The position numbers and the translations under genes were made by a program. DNA of 61,752 nt from positions 1 through 61,752 of the forward strand of contig CANRPA010000004.1 in NCBI GenBank assembly GCA_947632395.1, written 5' to 3'. How positions within the stretch are numbered: the stretch's first letter is position 1; every line of letters begins with the position of its first letter. This DNA comes from an uncultured Bacilli bacterium. Lineage in GTDB: Bacteria; Bacillota_I; Bacilli_A; RF39; UBA660. Below, one piece after another: positions 1 through 666 of this stretch. Under the pieces are notes generated by a model, which saw nothing but the letters and a program-made list of their open reading frames with translations, was not told the origin of the DNA and searched no databases.

Positions 1-467
1 TGTCCTGCCTTAATTGCTCCAGATAATCCAACTTTTGTTCTTTCACTAGTTCTTTCTATTTCTTGTTGAGATACACTCATTAATATTCTTGAAATCATTT
101 TTCCATTAGCATTAGTAGTATTAATATCATCATTAGCACAATCTAAATAAGCATTATTTTCTTCTAAAAATTTAATAATATTTTCCCAATCATAAACGCT
201 TCTTGTAAGTCTATCCAGTTTTAATACAACAATGGTATTACATTTCTTATCTTTAATATCTTGTAATAGTTCTTCAAAAGCAGGCCTTTTATTACCAGTT
301 TTAGCACTTATACCAGCGTCTTTATAGACTTTATATATTTCATAACCTTTATATTCACACATTGCTCGAAGTCTCTTTTCTTGTTCTGGCAAACTAAATC
401 CTTCTCGTGCTTGATCTTCAGTACTAACTCTAATATAAAGTCCTGCTATTTTCTTTTCTTCATTCAT
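1..467 (-). CDS. Large serine recombinase/integrase, N-terminal catalytic domain (runs off the window edge)
   Basis: Manual translation [29 protein letters not shown]...[11 protein letters not shown]...EIERTSER; YxRVST and DRLxR motifs; AAGGAG RBS upstream. Confidence 0.93.
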
Positions 468-490
468 TAATCTTCAACTCCTTTTCCTAC

Positions 491-537
491 AAAAAAGGGA
501 GTCAAAAATATTAGTTCAAACTAATACCTTTGACTCC
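491..537 (-). terminator. Intrinsic terminator ~24 nt upstream of the recombinase start
   Basis: GGAGTCAAA...TTTGACTCC stem with inner TATTAG/CTAATA stem, followed by a TTTTTT tract on the minus strand. Confidence 0.8.
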
Positions 538-582
538 ACTTAATTTCATATTATATTTTTTATTAATTGTATTTTTGACCAT
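511..582 (-). CDS. Putative 23-aa leader peptide MVKNTINKKYNMKLSGVKGISLN
   Basis: AAGGAGGT RBS 5 nt upstream of the ATG; stop codon lies inside the terminator hairpin. Confidence 0.6.
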   Translation of the reverse strand: MVKNTINKKYNMKLSGVKGISLN

Positions 583-637
583 AGCGTACCTCCTTTTTAA
601 TAAAAAACGGATACTTCTTGTCATTTATTGGTTTTAT

Positions 638-666
638 ATAATATACTTAAAAATTTATTTTGTCAA
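638..666 (-). promoter_or_regulatory. SigA-type promoter for the leader and recombinase
   Basis: TTGACA-17 nt-TATTAT. Confidence 0.7.

Follow-up and report, generated by a model that had tools for sequence, protein, structure and literature searches.

A conserved leader reading frame that runs into an intrinsic terminator: a putative translation-gated attenuator upstream of a serine integrase gene in uncultured gut Bacilli

Introduction

Attenuators composed of a leader open reading frame (ORF) and a terminator are well known. In the pyrBI operon of Escherichia coli, a ribosome that closely trails RNA polymerase prevents the terminator hairpin from forming, no antiterminator helix being needed, and UTP is sensed via pausing of the polymerase in the U-rich leader. 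In Tn916, which carries a tyrosine integrase and Xis, the attenuator acts on tet(M), and the regulatory and transfer genes further downstream are affected only indirectly; read-through transcription ultimately affects the mobility of the element. Here we analyzed a contig of an uncultured Bacilli bacterium (CANRPA010000004.1 of the assembly GCA_947632395.1; all of its 61,752 nucleotides are referred to as the window), in which a short leader ORF and a strong intrinsic terminator lie immediately 5' of a gene that, judged from its sequence, encodes a large serine recombinase (serine integrase). How the level of a serine integrase is controlled is poorly known for most elements beyond a few model phages.

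Five described systems resemble this locus in part. The pyrBI leader shares with it a short leader ORF that overlaps a promoter-proximal intrinsic terminator (PMC4824070), but pyrBI is a biosynthetic operon of a proteobacterium, whereas the locus studied here belongs to the integrase of a mobile element in an AT-rich gut bacterium of the Bacilli. The pil1 locus of the Gram-positive Streptococcus gallolyticus is similar in that the reach of the leader matters and not the sequence of its peptide: ribosomes that translate far enough destabilize a premature stem-loop terminator, and downstream expression is low and heterogeneous (PMC3894217). The pil1 leader varies in length by slippage of GCAGA repeats (phase variation), whereas the leaders described below have no repeat tract and a length that is fixed per lineage. 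The tet(M) leader of Tn916 (orf12; reviewed with integrative and conjugative elements in PMC5812530) also places a short leader ORF over terminator structures on a mobile element; in contrast, the attenuator proposed here would sit directly on the serine recombinase gene, and there is no resistance gene. The 5' terminators of IS10 and IS200, termed "mobile attenuators" (PMC2965389), lie directly 5' of a recombinase gene, limit its expression and shield it from outside transcription, and they need no translated leader, unlike the present case with its own promoter and a conserved leader 5' of the terminator. Finally, bmrCD of Bacillus subtilis (PMC4191407) and mef/mel (PMC4335068) combine a leader peptide with an intrinsic terminator in Firmicutes, but rely on alternative antiterminator structures and drug-dependent stalling, whereas neither a conserved alternative helix nor a stalling motif was found here. 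In the full-text literature, our coverage of which was incomplete, we found no attenuator described directly on a serine integrase gene.

Results

Anatomy of the leader

An earlier reading of the window from its letters alone (the sequence-only reading) placed a promoter, a ribosome-binding site, a 23-codon ORF, a terminator and the recombinase start codon on the minus strand, all of which we found at the coordinates it had given. It also proposed an antiterminator, which is treated below. The features are as follows.

666-638, minus strand: SigA/sigma-70-type promoter TTGACA-17-TATTAT, 11/12 match in the promoter scan (-35 box TTGACA, 666-661; 17-nt spacer; -10 box TATTAT, 643-638)
about 631, minus strand: inferred transcription start
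614-586, minus strand: predicted 5' hairpin GUAUCC...GGAGGUAC over the leader Shine-Dalgarno (SD) sequence, minimum free energy structure, -7.6 kcal/mol
595-588, minus strand: leader SD sequence AAGGAGGT, with the ATG 5 nt further on
582-511, minus strand: leader ORF of 23 codons plus TAA (ATG 582-580, TAA 513-511), peptide MVKNTINKKYNMKLSGVKGISLN
579-570, minus strand: 5' half of the antiterminator of the sequence-only reading, GTCAAAAATA, with its partner TATTTTTGAC at 510-501; present in the window, not conserved
537-491, minus strand: intrinsic terminator, an 18-bp stem closing a 4-nt loop (537-498), then C497 and T496-491
485-478, minus strand: recombinase ribosome-binding site AAAAGGAG, 10 nt before the ATG and including GGAG (481-478)
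467-465, minus strand: recombinase start codon ATG
3-467, minus strand: first 155 codons of the large serine recombinase, cut by the contig end; the other 462 codons lie on contig C29 of this assembly, at its end

A 5' leader of approximately 50 nt separates the promoter from the leader SD sequence. The stop codon of the leader ORF lies at the start of the terminator's 3' arm, and the ORF thus spans the loop and the entire 5' arm. When folded in isolation, the terminator hairpin has a free energy (dG) of -23.5 kcal/mol (z = -7.15), and none of 200 shuffled sequences was equally stable. The terminator is of rare strength in this genome, as only 29 hairpins with a dG of -12 kcal/mol or lower and at least 6 T residues were found on both strands of the 1.31 Mb. 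The T-run ends 23 nt before the recombinase ATG (24 nt in the sequence-only reading), and the promoter scan detected no promoter-like site on the minus strand in this gap, in agreement with the claim that there is no room for a further promoter. Thus, the promoter, the leader ORF, the terminator and the recombinase gene make up a single unit without an internal promoter, and this unit is strongly conserved, down to the arrangement GGAGTTGA..ATG at the recombinase start of the relatives. A promoter hidden in the TTGAC of the hairpin was considered and rejected, there being no -10 element at the correct spacing. The leader ORF has an alternative form of 37 codons starting from an ATG at 624, which has no SD sequence and is out of frame in the relatives. 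A search of the leader region with the covariance models of Rfam 15 yielded no significant family; the best match was sub-threshold and fell on the hairpin ("Bacillus-plasmid RNA", 19.9 bits against a gathering threshold of 31, E-value of 0.34).

Conservation of the terminator

We gathered 198 loci from 60 related genomes, IMG/VR, one genome per GTDB species and metagenomes, which provided 166 distinct regions upstream of genes for homologous large serine recombinases. These loci come from uncultured gut Bacilli of humans, ruminants, rabbits and poultry, together with the cultured Massilimicrobiota timonensis. A strong terminator, defined by a dG of -10 kcal/mol or lower and at least 5 T residues, was present in 146 of the 166 regions, at a distance of 11-168 nt from the recombinase ATG (median of 30 nt; 26-40 nt between the 10th and 90th percentiles). 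Many of these 146 sequences are related by descent, and counts collapsed to families are safer. Nearly all of the homologs with an N-terminal identity above 62% possess the terminator, which was detected in only one of the 12 homologs below 60%.

In an alignment of 25 sequences, the terminator helix was paired in 93.8% of the cells, against 85.3 +/- 1.0% in shuffled alignments (0/500 reached the observed value) and 45-62% in slid controls, and compensatory changes occurred at 8 of its 17 pairs. Among 76 distinct hairpins, we counted 1110 Watson-Crick pairs, 159 G-U pairs and 4 A-C single mismatches. The large excess of G-U over A-C points to a terminator that functions as RNA on the integrase-sense strand and not as a DNA palindrome. 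Some features of the hairpin sequence, namely the GAGGWGTCA 5' arm and a recurrent U-U mismatch, are conserved beyond the pairing. The possibility that the hairpin is an att site of the serine integrase or a DNA palindrome bound by a protein was rejected, because the T-run is conserved, the hairpin is intact in integrated elements and the ratio of G-U to A-C is 159:4; furthermore, the real junction lies at the CCA end of a tRNA gene (see below).

An open frame with a free peptide

An ATG preceded by an SD sequence was found 25-62 nt 5' of the hairpin in 113 of the 146 terminator-bearing regions. The leader frame is open as far as the hairpin in 103 of these 113 leaders, while the +1 and +2 frames are open in only 3 and 2 of them, respectively. 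After the leaders were collapsed to 24 sequence families, the leader frame remained open to the hairpin in 22 families and the other frames in one family each. The conservation of the leader ORF, which the sequence-only reading had offered as a check on its proposal, therefore holds. The leaders are 11-61 codons long (19-25 codons between the 10th and 90th percentiles), and they stop at hairpin positions +13 to +27 (10th-90th percentile; median of +24).

The leader peptides are diverse across the 24 families. The only residues that recur are RGV or EES, which the hairpin arm encodes in either of two frames, and neither a conserved stalling peptide nor regulatory codons were detected among the peptides of these families. 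The ratio of nonsynonymous to synonymous polymorphism (pN/pS) was approximately 0.6 for the leader against 0.15 for the first 150 codons of the integrase in the same sequence pairs, an estimate that is crude, the pairs not being independent. Furthermore, one clade, comprising about 19 distinct leaders, has ATA in place of the ATG start codon, and its former frame carries early stops, the decay that would be expected after a loss of translation. Judging from the frame-specific openness (103/113 vs 3/113 and 2/113), translation into the terminator appears to have been selected, and the peptide sequence not.

A hydrophobic ORF of 51 aa (530-685, plus strand) lies antisense to the leader and resembles a type I toxin. 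The corresponding reading, with this ORF as the toxin and the leader RNA as the antitoxin, was rejected because the ORF lacks an SD-linked start and is not retained across the 24 leader families; it is a by-product of AT-rich antisense sequence.

Variants without the standard leader

The terminator-bearing regions without such a leader ORF comprise the ATA clade (approximately 19), 7 regions in which just about 20 nt separate the promoter from the hairpin, and others. In addition, about 13 leaders have an ORF of 70-200 aa between the recombinase gene and a gene for a 90-aa protein located further 5' (p90; see below), which ends 0-11 nt before the hairpin; the genome-wide control for this stop-to-terminator distance consisted of 12 terminators, too few to discriminate. 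The integrase genes are mostly intact in the ATA, short-promoter and long-ORF classes. In the variant classes without a leader ORF, the terminators are somewhat weaker or larger-looped, with a median dG of -16 to -20 against -22.3 kcal/mol, and a link to the loss of the leader is suggestive only. Altogether, the terminator is therefore the invariant element of this family of sequences, and the translated leader would be a frequent but dispensable modulator.

Promoter and 5' structures

Of 130 homologous leaders, 119 have a promoter matching at least 10 of 12 consensus positions at the corresponding location, and the inferred transcription start lies at a median of 86 nt before the hairpin. A palindrome, CCCTAATCAGGG(AA), adjoins the -35 box in the window (667-682, minus strand) and may be an operator. 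This same element, CCCT-N3-6-AGGG, was observed 5' of the promoter in 33 of the 130 homologous leaders.

The sequence of the 5' leader is strongly conserved, particularly AAGCAGTATC and GAGGTAC, and in most leader types a hairpin can form over the SD sequence or the start codon. Across 74 distinct leaders, this 5' hairpin had a median z of -1.3, and 35% of the values were below -1.64. Its outer stem, GUAUC/GGUAC, is conserved and invariant, and RNAalifold gives only five invariant pairs. A second 5' hairpin, which is mutually exclusive with the first one and would close a conserved AAGCAGUAUC loop, has a predicted dG of -1.7 to -4.1 kcal/mol; some compensatory changes were recognized in it by eye (GAC/GTC replaced by AGC/GCT, and a mismatch that four lineages have repaired). 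It is possible that these predicted structures gate the translation of the leader.

The proposed antiterminator

According to the sequence-only reading, the start of the leader pairs with the 3' arm of the terminator. The two segments, GTCAAAAATA and TATTTTTGAC, are indeed exact reverse complements over 10 nt in the window, and an equal match occurred in approximately 1.5-4% of the leader shuffles. What did not stand is the generalization to a mutually exclusive antiterminator. The 10-nt complement is restricted to the window and a single further locus (L188), and the closest relatives retain 7 nt (GTCAAAA). In 81 of 103 leaders the complement is at most 6 nt, which is the level of chance, and only 3 of the 103 beat their own shuffles at p < 0.05. 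The covariation anticipated for this pairing was absent: in the 25-sequence alignment, the antiterminator helix was paired in 60% of the cells, against 58% in shuffles (76/500 reached the observed value) and 40-52% in slid controls, and RNAalifold recovered the terminator only. Moreover, the duplex reaches about -10.8 kcal/mol even when the penalty for closing a 59-nt loop is left aside, whereas the terminator has -23.5 kcal/mol. An antiterminator of this energy would lose to the terminator hairpin except where the 5' arm was already masked, and it would then be redundant. From these comparisons, we conclude that the 10-nt pairing is a lineage-specific coincidence, helped by a GTCAAA repeat, and lies outside the mechanism. 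Without the antiterminator, the further suggestion that translation stress induces the integrase does not follow.

The recombinase, its island and the insertion site

The window is an entire contig (C4) of an assembly of 78 contigs (1.31 Mb, 24.9% GC). Joined with its continuation on C29, the recombinase is 617 aa long. A protein that is 99% identical to it, encoded at the locus L041, has the Resolvase (PF00239, E-value of 2.7e-35), Recombinase (PF07508) and Zn_ribbon_recom (PF13408) domains. The R13 and S15 residues of the YIRVSTEDQ motif are invariant in 14 homologs, and the C-terminal 462 aa of the window recombinase on C29 weakly match XisF-type recombinases. No recombinase above approximately 33% identity was found in cultured phages and plasmids, the best-known distant relative being the phi105 integrase (27%), and relatives were also detected on contigs called viral by IMG/VR. 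L041 (2501-3895) has an integrase of only 464 aa, the N-terminus of which is 99% identical to that of the window, directly followed by genes resembling those for UDG, thymidylate kinase and MazG (the latter two assigned by eye). Situated beside tRNA-Leu(CAA) and made up of p90, a leader and the shortened integrase, this locus is perhaps a stranded remnant.

The island continues on C29 (locus L199, 1-16322), where the genes are on a single strand from the integrase C-terminus onward. They encode a MobV/Mob_Pre relaxase, a ResIII/DEAD helicase, Abi_2, RhuM/Fic, Bro-N and several unknown proteins. By its gene content, the element looks like an integrative mobilizable island with defense cargo. 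Three features lie 5' of the leader promoter on the same strand.

1164-1080, minus strand: tRNA-Leu(GAG), the last of a tRNA cluster; element DNA begins directly after its CCA end, with the junction between 1080 and 1079
1030-1001, minus strand: element-borne terminator-like hairpin with a T-run, just after the tRNA operon (-8.1 kcal/mol, z of -2.8)
961-689, minus strand: p90, a 90-aa protein of unknown function, 5' of and co-oriented with the recombinase gene

In about 50 of 60 loci (L039-L126), the module of p90, leader and integrase is located approximately 110-120 nt 3' of, and co-oriented with, a tRNA or transfer-messenger RNA (tmRNA) gene. The target genes include those of tRNA-Leu (GAG, CAA and TAG), -Thr (GGT and CGT), -Arg (CCT, CCG and ACG), -Gly, -Cys and -Phe, as well as tmRNA. 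Element homology begins exactly past the encoded CCA (...cacca followed by TAGGGAAATCCGCTCGAAC), even where the N-termini of the integrases are 97-100% identical. A near-identical serine recombinase thus seems to use the CCA end of many tRNA and tmRNA genes, which would be unusual for serine integrases. The element also appears to supply the interrupted tRNA operon with a terminator. The corresponding hairpin at 1030-1001 is AT-rich (AAUCAAUUC..GGAUUGAUU-U7), with compensatory variants in the relatives.

The p90 gene was matched by tblastn in most of the 146 relatives, with 27-100% identity, and always just 5' of the leader and the integrase. The protein had no match in Pfam, PHROG or NCBIfam. 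Its AlphaFold2 model, with a predicted local distance difference test score of 91.7, is beta-rich with two helices and matched no fold in the PDB (best E-value of 0.87). We regard p90 as a candidate accessory or regulatory factor of the recombinase.

Discussion

The analyses in silico revealed the anatomy of the leader and its conservation, the covariation of the terminator as RNA, and selection on an open frame without selection on the peptide. On these grounds we lean, with restrained confidence, toward the reading that the leader is a translation-gated attenuator of the terminator-overlap type, as in pyrBI and pil1, acting on the integrase of a mobilizable island. The leader and the terminator together probably set the amount of integrase. 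In this attenuator, the near-consensus promoter would start an RNA of approximately 140 nt that ends by default at the very strong terminator 23 nt before the integrase ATG, and the integrase would be made from read-through transcripts only. If a leader ribosome is close behind RNA polymerase, it would cover the 5' arm as the U-tract is synthesized, so that no hairpin forms and the polymerase enters the integrase gene; if no ribosome arrives in time, transcription would stop at the hairpin. The fraction of read-through, and hence the supply of integrase, would be set by the frequency and speed of leader translation relative to transcription, no antiterminator helix being required, and the predicted hairpin over the leader SD sequence may reduce or gate leader translation. 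If the leader is translated more slowly or not at all, or under general translation stress, less integrase would be expected, except where a ribosome has stalled on the hairpin itself. We infer here that the leader is translated and that its ribosome blocks termination, as we do the sign and magnitude of any response. Two experimental precedents exist for this mechanism: termination is almost lost when a ribosome sits at a stop codon located a few bp from the terminator (PMC4824070), and longer leader peptides of S. gallolyticus pil1 destabilize the premature terminator (PMC3894217).

Several points weigh against the attenuator. The terminator occurs without such a leader ORF in 33 of the 146 relatives, the integrase genes of which are mostly intact, and the leader is therefore not essential for integrase expression. 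Each of the three frames of the hairpin contains stop codons, and a stop inside the hairpin is automatic once the ORF gets there; what carries information is thus that the frame extends as far as the hairpin. Statistically, the predicted 5' hairpin is weak (z of -1.3 in the window), and it displays no covariation. The terminator lies 45-92 nt after the leader start, and in Bacillus-like bacteria transcription outruns translation. In E. coli, terminators in the first 100 bp of a coding region are still efficient because the first ribosome lags behind the polymerase (PMC4824070). With the terminator this close to the leader start and a lagging first ribosome, read-through is probably rare unless the polymerase pauses, and the effect of the ribosome may be small under the same proviso. 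Rare read-through would suit an integrase that is made sparingly or stochastically.

A rival explanation dispenses with gating by translation. The terminator may be a constitutive device that only keeps the integrase low and shields it both from outside transcription (the tRNA operon) and from the element's own strong promoter, with a fixed low level of leak-through; the short ORF would then have no effect on termination and be a small gene of its own or a stabilizer of the short RNA. The persistence of the terminator in the leaderless relatives fits this explanation, as does the position of the element, always directly 3' of and co-oriented with a tRNA or tmRNA gene; a class of 5' terminators that guard transposase genes against transcription entering from outside has been described (PMC2965389), and in E. 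coli promoter-proximal terminators remain functional when located in the first 100 bp of an ORF (PMC4824070). We nevertheless regard it as unlikely, for it leaves unexplained why the leader frame alone is open to the hairpin in 22 of 24 families while the peptide varies, and why the frame decays after the loss of the ATG. Insulation alone also needs no such layout, in which the element has its own promoter between the tRNA gene and the terminator and a separate terminator after the tRNA gene.

Alternatively, passage through the terminator could be decided by a protein or RNA acting in trans, such as p90, a directionality factor, or an antiterminator of a helper plasmid or phage, that binds the conserved hairpin or the 5' leader, or opens the hairpin over the leader SD sequence and thereby allows leader translation. 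The location of p90 just 5' of the leader in most of the 146 relatives and its confidently predicted fold without a known match are consistent with such a factor, and so are the conserved 5' sequences (AAGCAGTATC and GAGGTAC) with their two mutually exclusive predicted hairpins, the features of the terminator hairpin conserved beyond pairing, and the retention of the terminator by the leaderless variants. However, p90 matches no family and nothing about it indicates nucleic-acid binding, the conserved 5' nucleotides are explicable as pairing between anti-SD and SD sequences, the 5' structures are statistically weak, and the leader has no match in Rfam; we consider control by a factor distinctly improbable. 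Least credible to us, with only a slim chance of being correct, is the switch put forward in the sequence-only reading, in which leader codons 2-4 (579-570) pair with the 3' arm (510-501) upon ribosome stalling, so that stress or antibiotics induce the integrase. Its perfect complement in the window is somewhat longer than expected by chance (p of about 0.015-0.04 against shuffles), but the pairing fades to at most 6 nt in 81 of 103 leaders, does not covary and is outweighed energetically by the terminator, and the leaders share no conserved stalling peptide.

If the translation-gated attenuator is correct, the mobility of the element would be wired to the translation status of the cell by a very simple device. 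A bolder version, which we hold to be doubtful, is a genuine sensor: in a family of serine-recombinase elements of gut Bacilli that target the CCA ends of tRNA genes, the supply of integrase, and with it establishment or mobility of the element, would be tied to the momentary coupling of translation and transcription, with the alternative 5' hairpins deciding whether the leader is translated. The inputs to such a sensor would be the growth state, nucleotide pools or ribosome-targeting drugs, and it would represent a direct physiological input into serine-integrase expression, not previously described.

The family provides its own natural "mutants" in the form of the ATA start, the leaderless form and the long-ORF forms, and a leader of the same type in a cultured host, M. 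timonensis (L099), makes experiments possible. The module could also serve as a compact translation-dependent terminator for serine-integrase tools. For the uncultured gut Bacilli, what emerges is a conserved and testable control module placed directly on the integrase gene of widespread islands and prophage-like elements.

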